In this document: positions 16,219 through 29,196 of the stretch, in pieces | How positions within the stretch are numbered: the stretch's first letter is position 1 | Layout of the letters: every line of letters starts with the position of its first letter | Assembly: GCA_027623675.1 (NCBI GenBank) | Contig: JAQBVF010000002.1 | Coordinates: forward strand, 32,001-96,000 | Source of the DNA: Chloroflexota bacterium | GTDB lineage: Bacteria > Chloroflexota > Dehalococcoidia > Lucifugimonadales > UBA3495 | Reading direction: 5' to 3' | Length of the DNA: 64,000 bases | Notes under the pieces: generated by a model | What the model was told of the DNA's origin: nothing | The model's database searches: none | The model's input: only the letters and a program-made list of their open reading frames with translations | Translations under genes and position numbers: made by a program

Positions 16219-18318
16219 ATGCAGAGATTCCGGATTGGCGTGGACATCGGCGGCACGTTCACTGATATCGTCTTTCTGGGCGATGACGGCCAGGTGCTGG
16301 CCCGCAAGGTCGCTAGCACGCCCGGCGACTACAGCCGGGCGGTCCTGAACGGCATCAGCAGCGGCATAGAAGAACTGGGACTGACCGCCGACATGGTGTC
16401 CGAGGTCAGCCACGGCTTCACCGTCGCCACCAACGCCATCATCGAGCAGAAGGGCGCCAAGACCGCCCTGATCACCACCGAGGGCTTCCGGGACGTTCTG
16501 GAGTTCCGGCGCAACCGCATCCCCCGCCTCTACGACCTGCATTACGAGAAGCCGCCGCCCTTGGTCAAGCGGCAATTCCGGCTGGAGGTCGGCGAGCGGC
16601 TGAACTTTCAGGGCGAGGTGCTGAGGCCGCTGAACAAGGCCGACGTGGACCGCGCCGTTAGATACGTGCTGGACAACCGCATCGAGTCGGTGGCCATCTG
16701 CCTGCTGCATTCCTACGCCAACCCGGCACACGAGCAGTACATCGCCCAGGTGTTGACCGAGAAAGCGCCGGGCGTGAACCTCACCATATCCTCGGACCTG
16801 CTTCCTGAGATGAAGGAGTACGAACGCACCAGCACCACGGTGATCAACGGCTACGTCCGTCCGGTGGTCGAGAATTACCTGACACTGCTGACCGGCGGCC
16901 TCACCGAGATGGGCGTCACAGTCCCTCTGACCGTGATGCAGTCCAACGGCGGCCTGGCCACTGCCGACATCGCCAAGGAACGCCCGGTCTACTGCATCGA
17001 ATCCGGCCCGGCCGCCGGAGTGGTGGGGGCCTATCACCTGGGCAAGCGTTTGAACATCGCCAACCTGATGACCCTGGACATGGGCGGGACCACGGCCAAG
17101 GCATCGATCATTGAAGACGGCGAGATGCTGCAGGCCCCCGAGTACGAGGTCGGCGGCGAGATCAGCGTGGGCCACCGGCTGCTGCGCGGCTCGGGCCACA
17201 TCCTGCGGGTGCCGGCCATCGACCTGGCTGAGGTCGGCGCGGGCGGCGGCAGCATCGCCGCCGTTGACCGCAGCGGATCCCTCCGGGTGGGCCCTCAAAG
17301 CTCCGGCGCCGACCCCGGGCCGGCCTGCTACCGGCTGGGCGGACAGGACGCCACCGTGACCGACGCCAATGTGCTACTGGGCTTCTTGCATCCAAAGCAC
17401 CTGCTGGGCGGTGATTTCCAGATCGACTCGGAACTGGCCCGTAAAGCCATCACCGACAATGTGGCGCGGCCCCTTGGCATGTCCGACGTCGAGGCTGCCT
17501 ACGGCATCCACACGTTGGTCAACTCAAACATGGGCCGGGCGCTGCGGGCCGTTTCCAGCGAGCGGGGTCGGGACCCTCGAAGATTTGATCTCATCACCTT
17601 CGGCGGCAGCGGGCCGGTGCACGCCGTGGGCCTAGCCGAGATGCTGGACATCTCTCGGGTGGTGGTGCCGCCATTCCCCGGCGTGTTCAGCTCCTTCGGC
17701 CTGTTGGTGGCCGATGTGGAGCACCATTTCGTGCAGACTTACTTCAAGACCTTTGCTGAACTTGACATAACTGCTTTGGCGGGCTTGCTGGATAGCCTCT
17801 GGGAGCAGGGCCGGAGCCAGCTGCGCCTTGAGGGTTTCGACGACTCCCGCCATGAGGTGGTGACCCAGATAGACATGAAATACGAAGGCCAGGTATCGGA
17901 CCTGACCGTGCCCTTCCCCACCGGCCCCGTCAACCGGCAGACCATCCAGGCAGTGATCGGCGCCTTCGAGGAAGAACACGAGAAGAGCTTCGGGTACAGC
18001 AGCCCCGACTCGGGGTACCAACTGGTCAACGTGCGGGTCATCGCGCGTGGGTTGCCAGAGGTCGCCCGCATGCCGGAGCGGCTGGAACTTCCAAAATCAT
18101 CCAATGGCGCCGGCGATTCCCTAAGGAATGTCTACTTCGGACCCAACAAGGGCTGGTCCAGCGCCCCAGTGGTCGACCGCCAGGCCCTGGCCGGAAACAC
18201 CACCCAAGGACCGCTGATCGTCCAGGAATACGACTCGACCACCGTGGTGCCCCCCGGCTGGAACGCCACCACCGACCGGTGGAGCAACATCGTGCTAGAG
18301 AAAACTCCGGCGGCCTAG
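16219..18318 (+). CDS. Hydantoinase/oxoprolinase subunit A (HyuA-like, ATP-binding)
   Basis: GVDIGGTFTD, ESGPAAG, DMGGTT, GAGGGS, GADPGPACY. Confidence 0.93.
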   Translation: MQRFRIGVDIGGTFTDIVFLGDDGQVLARKVASTPGDYSRAVLNGISSGIEELGLTADMVSEVSHGFTVATNAIIEQKGAKTALITTEGFRDVLEFRRNRIPRLYDLHYEKPPPLVKRQFRLEVGERLNFQGEVLRPLNKADVDRAVRYVLDNRIESVAICLLHSYANPAHEQYIAQVLTEKAPGVNLTISSDLLPEMKEYERTSTTVINGYVRPVVENYLTLLTGGLTEMGVTVPLTVMQSNGGLATADIAKERPVYCIESGPAAGVVGAYHLGKRLNIANLMTLDMGGTTAKASIIEDGEMLQAPEYEVGGEISVGHRLLRGSGHILRVPAIDLAEVGAGGGSIAAVDRSGSLRVGPQSSGADPGPACYRLGGQDATVTDANVLLGFLHPKHLLGGDFQIDSELARKAITDNVARPLGMSDVEAAYGIHTLVNSNMGRALRAVSSERGRDPRRFDLITFGGSGPVHAVGLAEMLDISRVVVPPFPGVFSSFGLLVADVEHHFVQTYFKTFAELDITALAGLLDSLWEQGRSQLRLEGFDDSRHEVVTQIDMKYEGQVSDLTVPFPTGPVNRQTIQAVIGAFEEEHEKSFGYSSPDSGYQLVNVRVIARGLPEVARMPERLELPKSSNGAGDSLRNVYFGPNKGWSSAPVVDRQALAGNTTQGPLIVQEYDSTTVVPPGWNATTDRWSNIVLEKTPAA

Positions 18319-18371
18319 ATTTGCTAGCACGGACCAGTAAACCCGTACCCGCAATCCCGAAAGGAGCCCCC

Positions 18372-20108
18372 ATGCAACAGGTCACCGATCCGGTCACGAG
18401 AGAAGTAATCAAGAATGCCCTGATGAGCACCGCCGACACCATGGCGTTGACGGTGGTGCGCACGGCCCGGTCCGCGGTGATCAAGCACGGCATGGACTTC
18501 TCCACCTCACTGTTCAACGCCGAGGGACAGCAGGTGGCCCAGGGGCTAACCCTGCCGCCCCATCTGGGCTCCATGGCGCCGGCGCTGGAAGGGGTGATGA
18601 ACGCCTTTGGCGACGACGTGCTGCCGGGTGACATCTTCGCCAACAACGACCCCTATGAAGGAGCCAGCCACCTGCCCGACATCTTCCTGTTCAAGCCCAT
18701 ATTCAAGAATGACGTATTGGTCGGCTGGAGCTGCTGCATCGGCCATCAGACGGACATCGGCGGCCGCGTGGCCGGAGGCAACGCCTGCGACAACACCGAG
18801 ATATACCAGGAGGGACTGATCCTGCCGCCCCTCAAGCTCTACGAAAAGGGCGAATTGAACAAGGCGGTCTGGCGCATCCTGGAGAAGAACGTGCGGGTGC
18901 CCGACAAGGTGTTGGGCGACGTTCAAGCCCTGCTGGCCGCGGTACGGTTCGGCGAGCGCGACCTGCTGCGGCTGGTGGACGACTACGGCCTGGAAGAGCT
19001 GAAAAGCTATATGACCGACATCCTGGACACCACGGAGCGCCTGACCAGGGCCGAGATAGAGCTATTGCCCCAGGGCGAGTGGGAGTTCACCGACTACATC
19101 GACAACGACGGCATCGACCTCCATCCCATCGCGATACACGCCAAAGTGAAGATCGAGGGCGGCGAATTCTTTGTGGACTTTGACGGCACATCGCCCCAGG
19201 CCAAGGGCTCGATCAACCTCAACTTCGCCTACACCAAGTCCAACGTCTACGCCGTGATGAAATGCCTCATCGACCCGGCCATCCAGTCCAACAGCGGTTT
19301 TTTCCGGCCCTTCAACATCACCGCTCCCGAGGGCTGCTTCGTTAACCCGCAGCATCCGGCGCCGGTGGCCGCGCGGGGGCTGGCCGGGTTCCGCATCTGC
19401 CAGACCATCTTCGGGGCGATGGCCCAGGCCCTGCCCGGCAAGGTCCCGGCGGCCTGGGGCGGTGGCGAGATCGGCGTTAGCTGGGGCGGTTATTATCCCA
19501 ACCGCAAAGCCTGGGTTTACCTGGAGTTCGCCAACGATGGCCCCCGAGGCGGCGGGCCACAACTGGACGGCGCCGACGGACTGGCCGCGCCCATCTTGAA
19601 CATGGCCAACACGCCCATCGAGAGCATCGAGTCGGAGCAGCCGCTGATGGTGGAACGCTACGGTTTCGTGCCCGACACCGGCGGCGCGGGCAAGTACCGG
19701 GGCGGCCTGGGCATCGAGCGGGAGTTCCGTCTGCTGGCCGAGGACGCCACGTTCCAGTTGCGTTCCGACCGGACGGACTTCACCCCCTGGGGGGTCCTGG
19801 GCGGCAAGCCGGGCACCCCCACCGAGAACTACCTGAACCCCGGCACCGACTGCGAGGAGAAGCTGCCCGGCAAGACCCTGCGCCAACTCAAGAAGGGCGA
19901 CCTCTACCGGGTGGTGCAGGCCGGCGCGGGCGGCTACGGCAACCCGCTGGAGCGGGACATGCACGCGGTGGCCGACGACGTGGAACAGGAGAAGCTATCT
20001 GCGGAATACGTCCGCCGGGAGTACGGCGTGGTGGTGGACCCCAAGACCTTTGCTTTGGATGTGTCAGCCACCGAGAAGCTGCGCGCGGAGATGGCGGCCG
20101 GGGATTGA
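18372..20108 (+). CDS. Hydantoinase B/oxoprolinase subunit (HyuB-like)
   Basis: NDPYEGASHLPD, HQTDIGG, IYQEG, NTPIE, GGAGKYRGG, GAGGYGNPLER. AAGGAG SD before ATG 18372. Confidence 0.93.
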   Translation: MQQVTDPVTREVIKNALMSTADTMALTVVRTARSAVIKHGMDFSTSLFNAEGQQVAQGLTLPPHLGSMAPALEGVMNAFGDDVLPGDIFANNDPYEGASHLPDIFLFKPIFKNDVLVGWSCCIGHQTDIGGRVAGGNACDNTEIYQEGLILPPLKLYEKGELNKAVWRILEKNVRVPDKVLGDVQALLAAVRFGERDLLRLVDDYGLEELKSYMTDILDTTERLTRAEIELLPQGEWEFTDYIDNDGIDLHPIAIHAKVKIEGGEFFVDFDGTSPQAKGSINLNFAYTKSNVYAVMKCLIDPAIQSNSGFFRPFNITAPEGCFVNPQHPAPVAARGLAGFRICQTIFGAMAQALPGKVPAAWGGGEIGVSWGGYYPNRKAWVYLEFANDGPRGGGPQLDGADGLAAPILNMANTPIESIESEQPLMVERYGFVPDTGGAGKYRGGLGIEREFRLLAEDATFQLRSDRTDFTPWGVLGGKPGTPTENYLNPGTDCEEKLPGKTLRQLKKGDLYRVVQAGAGGYGNPLERDMHAVADDVEQEKLSAEYVRREYGVVVDPKTFALDVSATEKLRAEMAAGD

Positions 20109-20240: not shown

Positions 20241-20819
20241 TCAGCGGCCCATGACCTTCATGGAGCCATCCACGGGGTTGTACTGAAAACGCGTCACCCG
20301 ATCTAACTTCTGGGATTCCAGGCGAACGACCAGCGTGCGGTCGTCTTCCACGTTCAGGGTGTCGTGAATCTCGCCGGGCATGAAGTAGGCCACCGAGCCG
20401 TCTTCCTGCACGAACCGGCCATGCTCCACGATCTGGGCCTTCTCCACACCCTCACCGGGGAACGCCCAACGCCATTTCCGCTGCTGGATGGCGCCTTTGT
20501 AGACGCCGTAGACCACCCAGGTAACTCCGTGGTCATGGGGCAGGTTGTCTTGGCCTGGCTTTTGGACCGAGGCCATGAGCCACCAGCCGTTGCCGGGGTG
20601 CCCGGTCTCCTCGTCCAGATGCAGGGAGAACCGGCCGTAGCCGCCCTCTTCCGGAAGTTCCAGCTTCTCTTCCAACCAACCGGGGACCGCGAGCAACCGC
20701 TTCAATAACCCAGCCACGGTCTTCGCCTGAACATGGGGGTCGGATTCATTCCTAAAGATGTCTCTAACATCTTCTACGAAGGCTTCCATGGTGTAATTGG
20801 TCGTCTGCGTCTGTGCCAT
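20241..20819 (-). CDS. Cupin-fold, cysteine-dioxygenase-like metalloprotein
   Basis: PHDHG.TWVVYGVYKG and PGEIH motifs supply three His ligands. GGAGGA SD. Confidence 0.7.
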   Translation of the reverse strand: MAQTQTTNYTMEAFVEDVRDIFRNESDPHVQAKTVAGLLKRLLAVPGWLEEKLELPEEGGYGRFSLHLDEETGHPGNGWWLMASVQKPGQDNLPHDHGVTWVVYGVYKGAIQQRKWRWAFPGEGVEKAQIVEHGRFVQEDGSVAYFMPGEIHDTLNVEDDRTLVVRLESQKLDRVTRFQYNPVDGSMKVMGR

Positions 20820-20870
20820 CACGATCCTCCAATCAGTCCAATCTTGGGTCTCGGCGATTGTAAGTATTTC

Positions 20871-21165: not shown

Positions 21166-22152
21166 ATGGCTAACGACTTTACGATCCTGGTAGGCACAGT
21201 CGGTCAAGGGATGAACGTAAGCGGCGACAGCGGCGAGACCTGGACAAAGATCCGGCAGCCGATCCCCACGGAGTGCAGCATTCGGGCGCTCCGCACCTAC
21301 CCCAACGACCCTCACCGGATACTGGCCGGTTCCGACGGACATGGCCTGTTCCGCAGCGACGACAACGGCATCAGTTGGGAGAGTGTTGACTCGCCCATCG
21401 GCGACCTGCAGATCTGGTCGGTGGCCGTTGACCCATCCAACCCTGAGACCATCTTTGCGGGCACCCGCCCCGAGGGCTTCCGCTCCCGCGACGGCGGCAA
21501 GAGTTGGGACAAGCTGTCCATGGGCGTTAACAAGGAGTGCCCCATCGGCACGCCCCGCACGACCAATGTCATCGTTGACCCCCGCGACAGCAACACCATC
21601 TGGGCCGGCATCGAGGTCGATGGCGTCTACAAGAGCATGGACGGCGGCGACAATTGGGTGCACATGCCCAACCTGGGTCCCGACCCGTTCCACGGCGACA
21701 TCCACGGTATGGCAGTGAAGCCCGGCGCCAACTCGGCCGTCTATTGCACCAGCCCCTTCGGTTTCGCCACCAGCCTGGACGAGGGCGAGAGCTGGGACTA
21801 TCACTACTTCCCCAAGTTCAACCCCGAAGACGCCCGCTCGTACTGCCGCGGCATGATCATCAAGCCCGACAACCCCGATGTCATGTACGTGGGCAACGGC
21901 GACTTCATCCCCGGCGTCATCGGCACGGTCCAGATGACCAAGGACGCTGGCAAGACCTGGGCCCCGGCCAACCTGCCCGTGGAGCCCAACTCGGTGGTCT
22001 ACTGGCTGGCCAACAACCCTGAGATTCCCAACGTTGTCGCCGCGGCTACCCTCTTCGGCTACGTCTACGTGAGCGAAGACGGCGGTGACACCTGGAGTAA
22101 GCTCCGCAAAGAGTTCGGTGAGATCCGGTCTCTGGCCGTCACCCCCAACTAA
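21166..22152 (+). CDS. BNR/Asp-box repeat beta-propeller protein (no signal peptide)
   Basis: Repeated Asp boxes SGDSGETW, SDDNGISW, SRDGGKSW, SMDGGDNW, SLDEGESW, TKDAGKTW, SEDGGDTW. AGGAGG SD. Confidence 0.85.
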   Translation: MANDFTILVGTVGQGMNVSGDSGETWTKIRQPIPTECSIRALRTYPNDPHRILAGSDGHGLFRSDDNGISWESVDSPIGDLQIWSVAVDPSNPETIFAGTRPEGFRSRDGGKSWDKLSMGVNKECPIGTPRTTNVIVDPRDSNTIWAGIEVDGVYKSMDGGDNWVHMPNLGPDPFHGDIHGMAVKPGANSAVYCTSPFGFATSLDEGESWDYHYFPKFNPEDARSYCRGMIIKPDNPDVMYVGNGDFIPGVIGTVQMTKDAGKTWAPANLPVEPNSVVYWLANNPEIPNVVAAATLFGYVYVSEDGGDTWSKLRKEFGEIRSLAVTPN

Positions 22153-22183: not shown

Positions 22184-22221
22184 AAGAGGGGCGTCCCGGT
22201 GTGTCGGGACGCCCCTCTTTT
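22184..22221. terminator. Intrinsic terminator
   Basis: AAGAGGGGCGTCCCG-GTGTGT-CGGGACGCCCCTCTTTT between convergent genes. Confidence 0.8.
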
Positions 22222-22257: not shown

Positions 22258-23670
22258 TCAACTCTCCGGTCTGCCCCGGCTGAGACCCAAACTGGCGAAG
22301 ATGGCGATGGCCGCGGCGCCTAGGGATAGGATGAACACCAGTCCCAAGCCGCCCACATCGGACTTATCCGCGCCCAAAATCGCCGCGATCACGGCCGAGC
22401 CGATGATGCTGCCAAGATATCTGCTCGTCGAATAGAGTCCGGCCGCCGAACCCGAGTCCTTGCGGCTAACCGCCTCCACCGCCGACGTCTGCAGTCCGGG
22501 GGTGGACAGACCCAAGCCAAGGCCCACCAGTGACAGTCCCGCCAAGAGTTGGGATAGCGACACATCCTGACCGGCCAAAGCGATTGGCACCACGCCAACA
22601 GTCAACAGCACCATCCCGGCGGTGGTTGGCAGACGCCGCCCAAGACGGTCGATCATGCGGCCTCCGGCGAAAGACGAGACCACCATCCCGGCCGACATCG
22701 CCGTCAGGATCAGTCCGATACGCAATGAAGAATCGTCCCTGGCCGATAGGAGCAACGGTATCGCGATCAGCAGGGAATACATCGACAGATTGGCGAATCC
22801 TATCCCGGCGGCAGCGGCGCTGAATGACCTATTCAGGAAGAAATTAAGCTGGACTATCGGGTCGGGTTGACGCCTTTCGTACCAACCGAAGGCGATGGCG
22901 CCCACTGCCACGATCGGTATTCCGACGGCGATCAGCAACACCTCCGCGCCCTTGGAGAAGGAGATCAATATCCAAGCGGCGGCCACCAGAACGACGGGCA
23001 AGGCCATCGCGCCGAAGATATCGAAGCCGGGCTTGGCGGGAGTGGCCGCGATGGAAGGAAGCGCCTTGAAGCCGATCAATAAAGCAGGGGCGACGAATAT
23101 TAAGTTGACATAAAATATGGACCGCCACCCTGCCAGTTCCACCAGCAGCCCGCCCAGGGGCGGCCCGCCCGCCGCCGCCACCGCTATGCCAGCCCCAAGC
23201 AGACCGAACCCAGCCCCACGGCGGTGCGCCGGCAGTATCTCCCTTAGCAAGGCTGAACTGTTGGGCACGATCAGCGCCGCGCAGACGGCCTGCAACACCC
23301 GGAAGGCCAGCAGCAATGACAGTGATGGGGACAGCGCCGCTCCGATGGAAACGAACCCGAAGACCGATAGGCCGCTGAGCACCATGTTGCGGTGGCCGAA
23401 ACGGTCGCCCAATTTGCCCGCCAGAGGCTGCAGTGACGCCATGGAGATCAGATACGCGGTGATGAGCCAGCCGGCGCTGGTGATGGCCACATCGAAGTCC
23501 GTCATGATATCGGGAAGGGCCACCGCGATCATGGTGGAATTCAGCGGGGCCAGAACGATGCCAAGCATGACCGTCAGTAAGATGAGGCGCTCGCCCCTGA
23601 CGGTCATGCCGGCCGGTTCCGTGCCTGCCCCCGTATCCGCGGGTTTGGTGGGCTCAGCCTCTGGAGTCAA
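22258..23670 (-). CDS. MFS transporter (DHA2/EmrB-like); start uncertain
   Basis: LNSTMIAVALPDI, GKLGDRFG, FRVLQA, GPPLGGLL, WRSIFYVN. Many hydrophobic helices. Confidence 0.9.
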   Translation of the reverse strand: MTPEAEPTKPADTGAGTEPAGMTVRGERLILLTVMLGIVLAPLNSTMIAVALPDIMTDFDVAITSAGWLITAYLISMASLQPLAGKLGDRFGHRNMVLSGLSVFGFVSIGAALSPSLSLLLAFRVLQAVCAALIVPNSSALLREILPAHRRGAGFGLLGAGIAVAAAGGPPLGGLLVELAGWRSIFYVNLIFVAPALLIGFKALPSIAATPAKPGFDIFGAMALPVVLVAAAWILISFSKGAEVLLIAVGIPIVAVGAIAFGWYERRQPDPIVQLNFFLNRSFSAAAAGIGFANLSMYSLLIAIPLLLSARDDSSLRIGLILTAMSAGMVVSSFAGGRMIDRLGRRLPTTAGMVLLTVGVVPIALAGQDVSLSQLLAGLSLVGLGLGLSTPGLQTSAVEAVSRKDSGSAAGLYSTSRYLGSIIGSAVIAAILGADKSDVGGLGLVFILSLGAAAIAIFASLGLSRGRPES

Positions 23671-25288
23671 TCCTCACGATTCCCTTGGCCCCGTCGACTG
23701 TCAGGGTCATACCGTCGGTGATGACTGCCGTGCCCACTACCGTGCCGACCACGCAGGGCATCTTGTACTCCCGGGATACGATGGCGCAGTGGCTGAGCGG
23801 ACCGCCGGTGTCGGCGACCACCGCCCCCGCGATGGAGAAAAGAGGAGTCCAGGGGGGCATGGTCATCTCGCAAACCATGATGTCGCCCTGCTCAAGCTTG
23901 CTGGCCTCGGCCAGGGTGCGCACCACCTTCGCGGTCCCCTGAATGGTCCCCGGAGAAGCGCCCAATCCCTGGATGATATCCGGGTCTCGGCTTGGTTCCG
24001 GAGGCACGCCGAAGAACTTGGCGAATCCGTTGCCCAGTGGGTCACCTTCGCCTTCGTGTGCGGGCGGCTCTCCGATCACCGGCATGGGCACGATCTTCGA
24101 CCATCTGTCAATCTCGCCCATCCGCTCTGCGACCAACGCTCTCTGGTCCGTGCCGGAAAACGCCGACTTGATCTCTTCAAAGGTCAGATGGAAGACATCG
24201 TTCTGCTCCTTGATCGCGCCCTTTTCAGCAAGACGGCGGCCCATCTCCAAGATGGGAAGACGCATCACCGAGTTCCCCCGCTGGTCGATGTAGTAGTTGT
24301 GATTCTCGGTGATCGTCGCAAAGGGCTCGGCCAGGTGGTAGAGATTATTGAATTTCTCGAGTTGTTCGGGCTGACTCGAAAGGGTTTCCCTGGCCGTTGC
24401 CAGCAATTCTTCCCGCCTTTTTACCGCCTGCTGATACTTAACATCCGGGTCGTGGGTGTCGTCCAGGCGCATGTATCCCTGGATGGCGTTCAGGGGCACC
24501 TTGGGGTCTTCTCTCCAGGTGGGGTCGGCCAGTTCGAATGCGTCCGACCGCCAGCCAAACTCATCCAGATATTCTCGGAACGCCGCCAGGAATCCGCGGC
24601 CCTCCTCGGTGGCTTCCATCTCGAGCAGCAACTGGTCAGGTTGATGTTGCTCAAATAGTTGCCTCAGCGCGGTGCTTCGATTGACCCTGCGGCCCAGAGC
24701 CCACATGGCGCGCCCGGCATCGAGAGAGAGCGTGGGGTAACCCTGAAGCGCCTCGTAGGCCTCGGTGGGGTCTTCAGGGTCCATGAACTCGTTGTAGAAA
24801 TCCACGAACATGCCGGCGCTGGCGATGACAAAATTGATCTTCCCGTGGACCACATACCGGGCGATAAACTCCTGCTGCATCTGTTCCAGCGTCTGGATCA
24901 GTTCCTGGTCGCTGAGGGCGGTGTAGTCCCGGTCCATCGAGGATTTCAAACCGGGCAGGATCGAGGGCAACCATTCTTCCTCCCATAGCTTTCCCATGTT
25001 CGGCAGTACGGTCCCCAGGTTTTCTTTGTAACGGCCCACACGCTGCTCGATGGTTTCTTCGCCTAGGTCCTGGGGGACCAACGCGATGTAGGCATAGGTA
25101 TTGATGTTCCGGTAGACCACGCCCGCCGGGCAGGCGAATTCGTTCATGCCGCCGGTGAACCCAGCGGAGATAGCCGAGTTGAACAGGTCCTGGGTTAGGG
25201 TCGTCTGGGGCCTGGGGCAATGCATCTTGTCCCATTGCCAGAATCCTTCCATGTCCGAGGGGATCGGAAGATCAGTTTGGGCCGTCAT
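23654..25288 (-). CDS. PEP-utilising phosphohistidine subunit, phenylphosphate synthase subunit A-like
   Basis: C-terminal swivel domain GLGASPG...TMPPWTPLF...TGGPLSHCAIVSREYKMPCVVG. N-terminal FWQWDKMHCPRP and GVVYRNINTYAYIALVP resemble PpsA. GGAG SD before ATG 25288. Confidence 0.8.
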   Translation of the reverse strand: MTAQTDLPIPSDMEGFWQWDKMHCPRPQTTLTQDLFNSAISAGFTGGMNEFACPAGVVYRNINTYAYIALVPQDLGEETIEQRVGRYKENLGTVLPNMGKLWEEEWLPSILPGLKSSMDRDYTALSDQELIQTLEQMQQEFIARYVVHGKINFVIASAGMFVDFYNEFMDPEDPTEAYEALQGYPTLSLDAGRAMWALGRRVNRSTALRQLFEQHQPDQLLLEMEATEEGRGFLAAFREYLDEFGWRSDAFELADPTWREDPKVPLNAIQGYMRLDDTHDPDVKYQQAVKRREELLATARETLSSQPEQLEKFNNLYHLAEPFATITENHNYYIDQRGNSVMRLPILEMGRRLAEKGAIKEQNDVFHLTFEEIKSAFSGTDQRALVAERMGEIDRWSKIVPMPVIGEPPAHEGEGDPLGNGFAKFFGVPPEPSRDPDIIQGLGASPGTIQGTAKVVRTLAEASKLEQGDIMVCEMTMPPWTPLFSIAGAVVADTGGPLSHCAIVSREYKMPCVVGTVVGTAVITDGMTLTVDGAKGIVRIDSRG

Positions 25289-25366
25289 TTGACACTCCAT
25301 TTCGATGTTGAATATTTGCCGTTGGTTTTGCCGGGGCGCTAAACCCATAAAATGCGAAAGGAAACG

Positions 25367-26239
25367 CTAAAGCGTGGTGATTGGTCTGCATTGAAGGAGA
25401 TAGAGCTCGTTGGCGTGATAAGCGAACTCCAGGTCCACCGGCCAACCCATCTCCCGTTCCAGGTCTATGGCTAATTGAGCGATCTCCGCGGTCTGTACGG
25501 CGTCCAACGTTGCAGACTCGCGTCGAGCGCGTGGCACTCTCACTTCTTCGGTGCCGCCTTCGGCCAAAACCGTCATTACGCCCTTTTCACCGATGTAACT
25601 AGCTTTAACCTTGAGGTCTTTCTTCTGCACCACCAAGGTGTCCGGAGTCACCTTGCCCGACACCACGCTCTCGCCCAACCCCCAGGTGGCGTTGATCATG
25701 ACCTCGTCCCGATCGCCGCTGATGGGGTTGGCGCTGAAAACCACCCCCGAGATCTCCGCCGGAACCAACTGCTGCACCAGAACGGCCACCCCCAGGCTTT
25801 CCGCGGGCAGGCCATGCTCCTCCCGATAGCTGGCCATCCTTTCGCCTCCTGCCGAGTCCCAGCATTTGACGATGGCCTCCGAAACGGCTTTCGAACCCCG
25901 GACGTTCAGGTAGGTGTCATATTGCCCGGCGAAAGACGAGGTGAGTCCATCTTCGTCCAGGGCCGAGGACCTGACAGCCACCGCCGGTTCTTCGAGGCCG
26001 CACCTGGATGCCATCACCTGGTACTCCCGCAAGACGGCATCATGGAGTTCCACGGGCATCGTCCGCTGCGGCGACGCCGCTTCTTGAACTCCGGCGAACC
26101 ACCGGTTGTACAGCTCCGGCGTCAGGCAGAACCCAGCCGGCACCCTGAATCCGGCAGCCAAGCGGCTCAGGTTGGCCGCTTTGCCACCGACCCGTCCGGT
26201 CTCATGGCAGTCTCCGTCGCCAAGCCACAGGATAGTCAT
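25367..26239 (-). CDS. Stand-alone PEP/pyruvate-binding ATP-grasp subunit (PPDK_N; PpsB-like)
   Basis: VGGKAANL, VAVRSSA.DED, SFAGQYDT, WGLGESVVSG, DLEFA, LLQCRPIT, then stop. Confidence 0.88.
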   Translation of the reverse strand: MTILWLGDGDCHETGRVGGKAANLSRLAAGFRVPAGFCLTPELYNRWFAGVQEAASPQRTMPVELHDAVLREYQVMASRCGLEEPAVAVRSSALDEDGLTSSFAGQYDTYLNVRGSKAVSEAIVKCWDSAGGERMASYREEHGLPAESLGVAVLVQQLVPAEISGVVFSANPISGDRDEVMINATWGLGESVVSGKVTPDTLVVQKKDLKVKASYIGEKGVMTVLAEGGTEEVRVPRARRESATLDAVQTAEIAQLAIDLEREMGWPVDLEFAYHANELYLLQCRPITTL

Positions 26240-26377
26240 GCGCACCTCGATCGGTGTTGAGTAGTTAGTTGATCAGGTAGTTTAGCAGGTAGTTGACTCC
26301 GCAACTGTTGCATTGTAACCGAAAATGGAGCGATAAGCTATCGGGTAATTGTTTCTTTTGGACCGGAGTTAACCGGT

Positions 26378-26767
26378 CTATAGAGCAGCCAGGCCCACGC
26401 GGGCACAGTCTTCGTCCTGCTGAGAGGTCCCGCCGCTGCCGCCGATGGCCCCGATGACCACGCCGTCTTGGATGATGGCCAGAGCGCCCTGTGCCGGGAT
26501 GATGCGTCCGTTCTGGGTGGCCATGATGGCCTGTACCACCGGCGAATCGGCGGGAATGGCGCTGCTATCCCGCCCGAATCCCACGGCGCCAACCGCCTTG
26601 CCCTGCGCCGCCACCGCGCTGATGAATATGGCCCCCTCCATCCGGTTGAAGGCCAACAGATGCCCGCCGGCGTCGCAGACGGACACGCTCAGTTTGATGT
26701 TCATCCGCTCCGCCTCGGCGATGGCCGCCGCTACCATCCTATTGGCGTCGCTCAAAGTCAGTGCCAT
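26378..26767 (-). CDS. GlcG/HbpS-family heme-binding protein
   Basis: VSVCDAGGHLLAFNRMEGA, GKA, GAIGGSGGTSQQDEDCA. Confidence 0.85.
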   Translation of the reverse strand: MALTLSDANRMVAAAIAEAERMNIKLSVSVCDAGGHLLAFNRMEGAIFISAVAAQGKAVGAVGFGRDSSAIPADSPVVQAIMATQNGRIIPAQGALAIIQDGVVIGAIGGSGGTSQQDEDCARVGLAAL

Positions 26768-27159: not shown

Positions 27160-28359
27160 ATGGTTGACCAACTAAAACGACCCAAGGACCATCCCGAGAT
27201 CTATTGGTTCTCGGAGCAGCCATACGGGCATGTTGGCGAAGAAGACCTGAAGAAGTTCGACTCGGGCCGTCTTGGCTTCCCCAACTCCTACTTCGACCCG
27301 GAAAAGGCGTCCGTCCTCTACAACAATTACCACGAACAGTACCAGCTTGCCGACGAAGTGGGCTTTGACGGCATCATGAGCAACGAGCACCACGCCTCAT
27401 ACTGGTGCATGAAGCCGGCAGTGAACCTGGACGCCGCCGTCATCTCCAAGCTGACCAAGAACGTCAAGATCGCCATCTTGGGCAACGTCATCTCGGTGGG
27501 AGACCCCATCCGCATGGCCGAAGAGATCGCCATGCTGGACTGCTACTCCGGCGGCCGGATCATATCCGGGTTCGTCCGCGGCACCGCCGTCGAGACGCTT
27601 TTGTCGGGACAAGACCCGACGGAAAACTTCGCCCGGTTCCAGGAGGCCCACGACCTGATTATCAGGTGCTGGACCGAGGACGGCCCCTTCCGACATGAAG
27701 GCCAATATTTCAAGTACCGGGTCGTGAATCCGTGGGTCAAGCCCATGCAGAACCCCCGCCCCGACATCTGGTTCCCCGGCACCGGCAGCCCCGAGAGCGT
27801 GGTGTGGGCGGCCCAGCACGGCCACCCCTACATGAACTTGGGCGCTCTGGTGGACACCACCGAATGGCTGAAACAGATCTACATCGACACCGCCAAAGAG
27901 TCCGGATACAAGGCCGGCCCCGAGCATTTCGGCTACCTGCTTCGGTGCTTGGTGGCGGATACCGATGAGAAGGCCATCGAGATTGGCCGTGAGTTCATGT
28001 GGACCGCCGACCACCGTCAGAAGGGTCCCAGAGAGCACAACGACCCTCCCGGCTACCAGTCCCGCCGCGCCGTGGAAGTGAAGCGGGCGCGGCCAGCCCT
28101 GGGCACGGGCGCTTCCGAGTTCGGAAACCCGACAACCTACGACGAACTGCAAGCGGTGAACAACATCATCGTGGGCAGTCCCGAGACGGTAACCCGGAAG
28201 TTCACGGAGATCATCAACCGCCTGAGCCCCGGATACGTCCACATCTACGGCAACGAGGGCGCCATGAAGCACGAGGACACCATGCGGTCCATCGAGCTTT
28301 TGGGCAAGGAAGTTATCCCGGCCCTTCACGAGCTGCAACTCAGGCCCTACGACGACTAG
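27160..28359 (+). CDS. LLM-class flavin-dependent oxidoreductase (luciferase-like monooxygenase)
   Basis: ADEVGFDGIMSNEHH, PIRMAEEIAMLD, SGGR, IVGSPETV, SIELLGKEVIP. Confidence 0.9.
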   Translation: MVDQLKRPKDHPEIYWFSEQPYGHVGEEDLKKFDSGRLGFPNSYFDPEKASVLYNNYHEQYQLADEVGFDGIMSNEHHASYWCMKPAVNLDAAVISKLTKNVKIAILGNVISVGDPIRMAEEIAMLDCYSGGRIISGFVRGTAVETLLSGQDPTENFARFQEAHDLIIRCWTEDGPFRHEGQYFKYRVVNPWVKPMQNPRPDIWFPGTGSPESVVWAAQHGHPYMNLGALVDTTEWLKQIYIDTAKESGYKAGPEHFGYLLRCLVADTDEKAIEIGREFMWTADHRQKGPREHNDPPGYQSRRAVEVKRARPALGTGASEFGNPTTYDELQAVNNIIVGSPETVTRKFTEIINRLSPGYVHIYGNEGAMKHEDTMRSIELLGKEVIPALHELQLRPYDD

Positions 28360-29158: not shown

Positions 29159-29196
29159 GAGTAAAGGCGTCCCGATCCACCGGGACGCCTTTACTC
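29159..29196. terminator. Terminator-like hairpin
   Basis: GAGTAAAGGCGTCCCG-ATCCAC-CGGGACGCCTTTACTC, downstream of the YHS gene on the minus strand. Confidence 0.65.

Follow-up and report, generated by a model that had tools for sequence, protein, structure and literature searches.

A two-component small-molecule dikinase paired with a major facilitator transporter in a Dehalococcoidia bacterium, and its possible role in phosphorylating and exporting hydroxylated aromatic compounds

The window analysed here is a 64,000-nucleotide stretch of DNA from a Chloroflexota bacterium of the class Dehalococcoidia (Lucifugimonadales; UBA3495; assembly GCA_027623675.1, contig JAQBVF010000002.1, positions 32,001 to 96,000). 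Our subject is an operon on its minus strand that appears to encode a dikinase divided between two proteins, an ATP-grasp subunit (I) and a subunit that joins substrate binding to a phosphohistidine swivel domain (H), followed by a major facilitator superfamily (MFS) transporter. An original prediction, made from the window's letters, had described four genes on this strand ending at a hairpin, and we found the same open reading frames, domains and coordinates. The features, with rifampin phosphotransferase (RPH) and phosphoenolpyruvate (PEP) synthase as the points of comparison, are these:

26378..26767, minus strand: GlcG/HbpS-like heme-binding protein, 129 aa (PF03928), accessory
25367..26245, minus strand: subunit I, stand-alone PEP-synthase-type ATP-grasp protein, 292 aa (PF01326 only, E 2e-81)
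23654..25288, minus strand: subunit H, RPH-type substrate-binding protein with a C-terminal swivel domain, 544 aa (PF00391 at residues 466-536)
22258..23670, minus strand: DHA2-like MFS transporter, 470 aa (PF07690)
22184..22219, no strand assigned: hairpin with a 15-bp perfect stem between convergent genes (z -4.6)
27160..28359, plus strand: luciferase-like monooxygenase (LLM), divergent and loosely linked (PF00296)

The division between I and H, which had been read as two separate genes, is no assembly slip. The I/H junction is crossed by contigs of two sequencing runs with 0 differences, both runs being possibly the source of this DNA, I ends at its own stop codon, and close orthologues are without any I-H fusion. 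Among 110 related loci, a fused I-H reading frame was seen once, in an Acidobacteriota locus (L150) whose protein is 36% identical to H, and the best 120 of 849 H protein matches were all at most 565 aa, with lengths searched up to 952 aa. The likelier start of I is the ATG at 26239, which gives a 290-aa protein, and has a GAGGT-type site that is kept in 7 of 7 aligned loci. The frames of H and the transporter overlap by 17 nt, and the transporter starts with TTG, with an alternative ATG at codon 22.

Comparison of both subunits with known families supports their assignment as a putative split small-molecule dikinase of the RPH family, and not as a PEP synthase. An AlphaFold model of H (pLDDT 89.9) found RPH-Lm as its best Foldseek match (template-modelling score 0.69-0.70 by query, 20% identity), and in a structural-cluster search residues 1-410 matched only PF27448 (Rph_4th) or unnamed clusters. 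The predicted catalytic residue is His500 in GGPLSHCAIVSRE (codon 23789-23791), within a swivel GGxxxH motif whose usual Thr or Ser, three residues ahead of the GG, is Ala here. The protein also carries D20-x-x-H23 (of a D-x-x-H-x-P motif), His148 and E328-N-H330, as do PpsA-, CreH- and HpeH-type proteins, the last motif lying in T-E-N-H at residues 327-330. Over 96 non-reference rows of the alignment these residues were conserved in 85 (His23), 89 (His148), 95 (Glu328), 82 (His330) and 96 (His500). Matches of I in the PDB were the grasp domains of PEP synthase and RPH; it is 34-40% identical to PpsB, HpeI, CreI and RPH-type references, and its Lys22, Arg92 and Thr111 are the counterparts of RPH-Lm Lys22, Arg117 and Thr136. 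These three RPH-Lm residues, like Arg666, Glu667 and Lys670, are taken from PMC4844700. A complex prediction for an orphan H orthologue from genome G129, which shares 59% identity with the window's H, paired with the sole and unlinked I of G129 and with ATP, scored 0.00; controls were not folded, and the result is not used as evidence.

Two readings that would assign the pair a familiar function fit these data poorly. A split PEP synthase of central metabolism could be argued for on the ground that a search of the host genome (3.07 Mb, 91% complete) gave no PEP-synthase-type ATP-grasp besides I. However, domain and profile searches of H and I and a structure search of H gave no match to a pyruvate-binding barrel, as had been claimed from the letters alone. 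In addition, a pyruvate phosphate dikinase (PPDK)-like gene with a 966-aa frame, which with H accounts for all PF00391 matches in the genome, lies on contig C10, and of 19 other genomes of the genus only 2 gave an orthologue of the operon, so that this reading is barely credible. A rifamycin-type resistance kinase with an efflux pump is only slightly easier to accept, and we consider it very improbable. In its favor, RPH is the best structural match of H and the transporter resembles drug exporters; the fold, the catalytic His, the grasp residues and Glu667 (as Glu328) are shared with RPH structures (PDB 5FBS/5FBT/5FBU/5HV1). However, RPH is one fused chain, with an Arg-Glu-x-x-Lys (R-E-x-x-K) block and more than 42% identity to RPH-Lm across its clade, whereas H is a separate gene product with 20-23% identity to RPH (about 20% in the structural comparison) and a T-E-N-H-N block with Thr and Asn in place of RPH Arg666 and Lys670. 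The RPH profile gives H a score of 137 against a cut-off of 999. Within the same family, YvkC of B. subtilis is described as a flavonoid/phenolic phosphate synthetase that acts on phenolic OH groups (PMC13099321, PMC11124408); the likeness drawn here, phosphorylation of a phenolic OH by an RPH-family enzyme, comes from those descriptions.

Dikinases divided between two proteins, one with the ATP-grasp and the other with the substrate and swivel-His domains, are already a described subfamily, comprising HpeHI, CreHI and PpsAB (PMC12167813) and AcvAB (bioRxiv 10.1101/2022.04.28.489975). In PMC12167813, HpeH, CreH and PpsA are about 45% identical in pairs, no stable H:I complex is reported, and the characterised members start catabolism, with HpeHI proposed to scavenge. 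The claim that the window holds an undescribed system thus falls as regards the split design, and stands as regards the clade and the pairing with an MFS gene, which are not among the characterised ones. For comparison we used plasmid-borne stand-ins chosen by ppc, cre-type or hpe-type gene context, not the type proteins. These PpsA-, CreH- and HpeH-type references are 44-46% identical to each other across types and 24-27% identical to the window's H, and in both of our quick trees they form their own long-branched clade with support 100. The clade that contains the window's H is a different one, made up of proteins from Chloroflexota and Acidimicrobiia (45 of 109 rows), again with support 100. 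In a mixture-model quick tree, this clade and the phenol kinases form one group (27 of 47 rows, SH-aLRT 95) that excludes the RPH-type and fused rows.

Given the low identity and the separate clades on one side, and the shared signatures on the other, H is predicted to work like PpsAB and HpeHI, yet it lies outside their clade. The description of the pair as phenylphosphate-synthase-like accordingly holds for the mechanism and the E-[ND]-H motif, and not for the clade. Both parallels with the PpsA N-terminus drawn in the original prediction were borne out by alignment with a ppc-linked PpsA-type protein, FWQWDKMHCPRP with FWFYDGLHYPEP and GVVYRNINTYAYIALVP with GVDHRIINGYVYISPVP, at a whole-protein identity of only 26%. 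The window's pair and the characterised two-component enzymes have in common the N-terminal FW..D..H.P, His148 and E-[ND]-H, and both are without the regulatory Thr two residues ahead of the catalytic His (Leu498 in H). They differ in length, the window's subunits being shorter (544 versus about 610 aa for H, and 290 versus 354-380 aa for I), and in their partners, with a dedicated MFS gene here in place of PpsC, a carboxylase, a P450 or a phosphatase. In the reference loci of the PpsA, Cre and Hpe types the kinase is accompanied by a carboxylase or P450, and in the Cre and Hpe loci by a phosphatase-type gene as well; the window's operon has no clustered carboxylase, oxygenase plus phosphatase, or ppsC.

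The rest of the host genome points the same way. The original prediction had found no ppc partner genes in the window, and a search of the 91%-complete genome found no homologue of PpsC, PpcD, PpcG, HpeA, HpeC, HpeD or CreD. On other contigs there are single genes for a UbiD (unlinked, 31% identical to PpcB), a biotin carboxylase and a P450. An LLM query gave 63 tblastn matches in this genome, which fits what we take to be a SAR202 trait, many LLM copies.

Conservation of the gene order was examined in orthologous loci at 70% identity or more. Two of 19 such loci (L268, L269) matched by the swivel domain only and were dropped, leaving 17, some of which are probably from the same strain. Where sequence upstream of H is present, I comes directly before it in 16 of 16 loci, and where sequence downstream is present, the MFS gene comes directly after it in 15 of 15, so the predicted linkage to the transporter is conserved. 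The inclusion of glcG in the unit did not hold up, as only 1 of the 6 loci that reach far enough has it upstream of I; the conserved core is I-H-MFS, and glcG is accessory. H or I contains a stop or frameshifts in several close orthologues (L090/L245/L252, L093, L264), where decay and assembly error are not separable. In L245/L252 and L264 an LLM gene near the operon is 92% identical to a paralogue on contig C20 of the host genome and 72% identical to the window's own LLM. The latter is therefore a paralogue of the gene found beside the operon in relatives, and one LLM subfamily recurs there.

The closest sequences of known structure to the MFS protein are QacA (best PDB match, E 1e-29) and EmrB, and its structural neighbours include DHA2-named clusters. 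Motif C of antiporters, GPxxGG, is kept as GPPLGG; a crude hydropathy scan called 10 segments, where DHA2 proteins have 14. In a class sample of 399 genomes, we took the 50 best MFS matches (E 6e-54 or better). An H or I gene is no more than 250 bp away from 19 of these, which come from 7 families and show co-directional, divergent or convergent arrangement, and the transporter accompanies several separate H clades. Genomes with an MFS match are H-positive in 34 of 44 cases, compared with 72 of 399 overall; because related genomes are not independent, we give no weight to a p-value for this co-occurrence. In two loci (L152, L153), I and the transporter are 48-54% and 51-54% identical to the window's, but H only 36-38%, a pattern suggestive of a cassette in which H can be exchanged. 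A plasmid search with the MFS query gave no match. For YvkC, which we assume to be a fused single chain, we likewise presume an MFS gene, yvkA, in the operon; our literature search found no passage confirming it. A row of MFS, cytochrome P450, H and I genes occurs on a small plasmid of Deinococcus radiodurans (L170), a culturable organism, with a distant H.

Taken together, the conserved core of kinase and transporter raises the possibility that the operon phosphorylates an aromatic-type hydroxyl compound and then exports it, a reading we prefer tentatively and would place a little short of an even chance. By homology, I would very probably bind ATP, meet H transiently and place the beta-phosphate on His500, releasing AMP and Pi, after which the swivel domain would carry the phosphate to the substrate pocket of H. 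The acceptor would, somewhat more probably than otherwise, be the hydroxyl of an aromatic or heteroaromatic compound or some other acidic OH, probably the product of one of the host's many oxygenases or demethylases; such enzymes often yield phenolic hydroxyls. A phenolic or heteroaromatic substrate is suggested by the E-[ND]-H motif and by oxygenase-rich neighbourhoods, which fit it and name no compound. If that first step occurs, the chances are about even that the co-translated DHA2-like transporter exports the phosphate ester, and H would then act as an exchangeable specificity module. The three genes would in that case form a phospho-conjugation cassette for detoxification or disposal and would not open a carboxylation pathway. 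We lean toward export because of the minimal kinase-plus-exporter core, the exporter-type MFS protein and a precedent in rifampicin phosphate, most of which is reported to end up in the supernatant in B. subtilis (PMC13099321).

Several observations weigh against the export of a phosphate ester. Exporting phosphate at the expense of two high-energy bonds would be costly. The transporter scores 198.7 bits with TIGR00711 (DHA2), under the cut-off of 230.2, and unlike QacA and EmrB it has Asn in place of the Asp of the first transmembrane segment (TM1): Asn44 aligns with QacA Asp34, presumably the protonation site, and Asn was present at this position in 28 of 28 subfamily members checked, whether linked to the kinase or not. 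From these two features, the protein may be a facilitator or importer. Most of the ten or so best MFS matches (family f58) have neither H nor I beside them, and a search scoring only 3 candidates per genome gave no H match for 10 of the 44 transporter-bearing genomes. The trees that separate the window's clade from the phenol kinases are quick trees only, with long reference branches. Finally, the neighbours of H in its own clade include importer, oxygenase, hydrolase and phosphatase genes, which fit catabolism. These are LLM, Rieske and HpaB oxygenases, metallo-beta-lactamase (MBL)-fold hydrolases, among which are weak GntH matches, ATP-binding cassette (ABC) importer genes, a MetE-like zinc enzyme and, occasionally, haloacid dehalogenase-type (HAD), His- or Tyr-phosphatases.

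The same neighbourhoods favor a close rival, which we judge rather unlikely in itself, in which the MFS protein admits a dilute aromatic or hydroxylated compound and I and H phosphorylate and retain it, priming it for oxidation by LLM or Rieske enzymes, whether neighbouring or unlinked, as in the Cre and Hpe pathways. Such uptake and trapping would agree with the position of all characterised two-component members at the start of catabolism and the proposed scavenging role of HpeHI (PMC12167813), with the TM1 Asn, with the oxygenases, importers and phosphatases beside H relatives, and with the recurrence near the operon of the LLM subfamily whose paralogue is the window's neighbour. It agrees less well with a conserved core that has no phosphatase, carboxylase or regulator, with the antiporter motif of an exporter-type MFS protein, and with the patchiness of the orthologue in the genus and the interrupted genes in some relatives.

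A further possibility, that the phosphate acts as a leaving group, or forms an activated intermediate, in preparation for a next step such as thioether formation by a MetE-like Zn-thiolate enzyme or a PigC-like condensation, with the transporter exporting the end product, is raised by another neighbour of H. A MetE-like gene (PF01717, zinc motif H-x-C and C kept) directly adjoins H in 13 of 80 GTDB loci, with a second MetE-like type next to H in 2 more, making H and the MetE-like protein a candidate pair of kinase and thiol-alkyltransferase. A split pair of the superclade also occurs in a nonribosomal peptide synthetase (NRPS) cluster of B. thuringiensis, a possible biosynthetic use. In the window, however, no MetE-like or biosynthetic gene adjoins the operon, and both MetE-like genes of the genome lie on contigs other than this one. 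H is also without the R-E-x-x-K motif of RPH and the fused forms, and with the PigC/RedH NCBIfam profile the two halves score 154 (H) and 214 bits against a cut-off of 1300. Activation is thus improbable for this operon. The 13 loci are L092, L108, L112, L114, L116, L123, L141, L147, L155, L156, L164, L165 and L167, and the two of the second type L260 and L261; the MetE-like protein is single-barrel, falls below all NCBIfam cut-offs and lies beside an orphan H in Chloroflexota and Acidimicrobiia. In the B. thuringiensis plasmid locus (L084:5968-8572), the split I and H, with an E-D-H motif, are accompanied by thioesterase-type and ABC genes.

The numbers of the two subunits across the class suggest a wider setting for phosphorylation and export. 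We counted stand-alone genes in 74 genomes, 72 from the class sample and 2 from the genus, which were chosen for having H and are mostly incomplete. Swivel-only and fused matches were excluded, two fragments in G372 were taken as one H, and a second I fragment in G012 was dropped. These genomes contain 186 stand-alone H genes versus 51 stand-alone PEP-synthase-type I genes, and the H genes are scattered, only 27 of the 186 having a stand-alone I no more than 3 kb away; in the window the ratio is one to one. Where a genome has at least three H genes (n=29), there is exactly one I in 21, none in 7 and two in 1. Genomes assembled in one or two contigs (G254, G358, G370, G372, G418) have 3-4 H and one unlinked I each, and the lone I sits in a housekeeping context, for example fabF-I-prepilin peptidase-thyX in G372 and G336. 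The extreme is G144 (1.0 Mb, loci L224-L232), with 11 H matches, of which 9 compared are 32-67% identical, and 8 of the 8 whose motif was read keep the swivel His. The I query missed a PPDK-type grasp-plus-His gene beside H in G096, and some long open frames may be other fusions, so genomes scored as having no I can be wrong.

It is possible, though we hold it doubtful, that the window shows, in compact form, a network spanning the class, in which one housekeeping ATP-grasp protein would serve up to 11 scattered H subunits, an MFS subfamily without the TM1 Asp would move esters or their precursors, and many hydroxylated organics would be tagged and then exported or trapped. A housekeeping ATP-grasp used as a general phosphoryl donor would, by analogy, resemble enzyme I of the phosphotransferase system, but driven by ATP. 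Some further observations concern the same genomes. G179 is another small genome (0.8-1.0 Mb for G144 and G179), with 7 stand-alone H and one stand-alone ATP-grasp gene. In G144, a separate family of 550-580-aa proteins with no match to the H profile adjoins several H genes. The G096 gene (L181:6254-8431) directly follows H and encodes 725 aa with a PPDK-type ATP-grasp and a His domain, a possible alternative donor for H of the R-E-x-x-K type.

What appears to be new here, judged from gene content and phylogeny, is a two-component dikinase clade outside the characterised ones, with a dedicated transporter and a class-wide excess of acceptor over donor subunits. Our literature search, which did not extend to most subscription papers, among them the first reports on PpsAB, CreHI and YvkC, found nothing relevant on this clade or on MFS-linked or shared-donor dikinases. 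The few two-component dikinases characterised are all from one phenol-kinase clade and all act at the start of catabolism, and the window's branch is common in uncultured Chloroflexota and Acidimicrobiia, where it is paired with a transporter rather than a carboxylase. Because the three-gene unit is small and self-contained, and easily expressed, it offers a direct route to the kinase substrates and to the question of whether aromatics are conjugated and exported. If one I does serve many H subunits, the H paralogues would amount to a catalogue of the organics met by SAR202-type bacteria, and possibly a source of regioselective kinases.

Elsewhere in the window, a hydantoinase/oxoprolinase A and B pair lies at 16219-20108 (plus strand), a 193-aa gene with no Pfam match at 20241-20822 (minus strand), and a BNR-repeat protein gene at 21166-22152 (plus strand). 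In two loci of the same genus, no homologue of these genes or of an isochorismatase gene was found beside the operon. The U-tract of the hairpin at 22184-22219 is better on the plus strand, so the hairpin probably ends the convergent gene as well and would be a two-way intrinsic terminator. One palindromic core is common to 7 terminator-like hairpins in the genome, with copies in this hairpin, at about 29159-29196 in the window, and on contigs C5, C10, C13 and C43.

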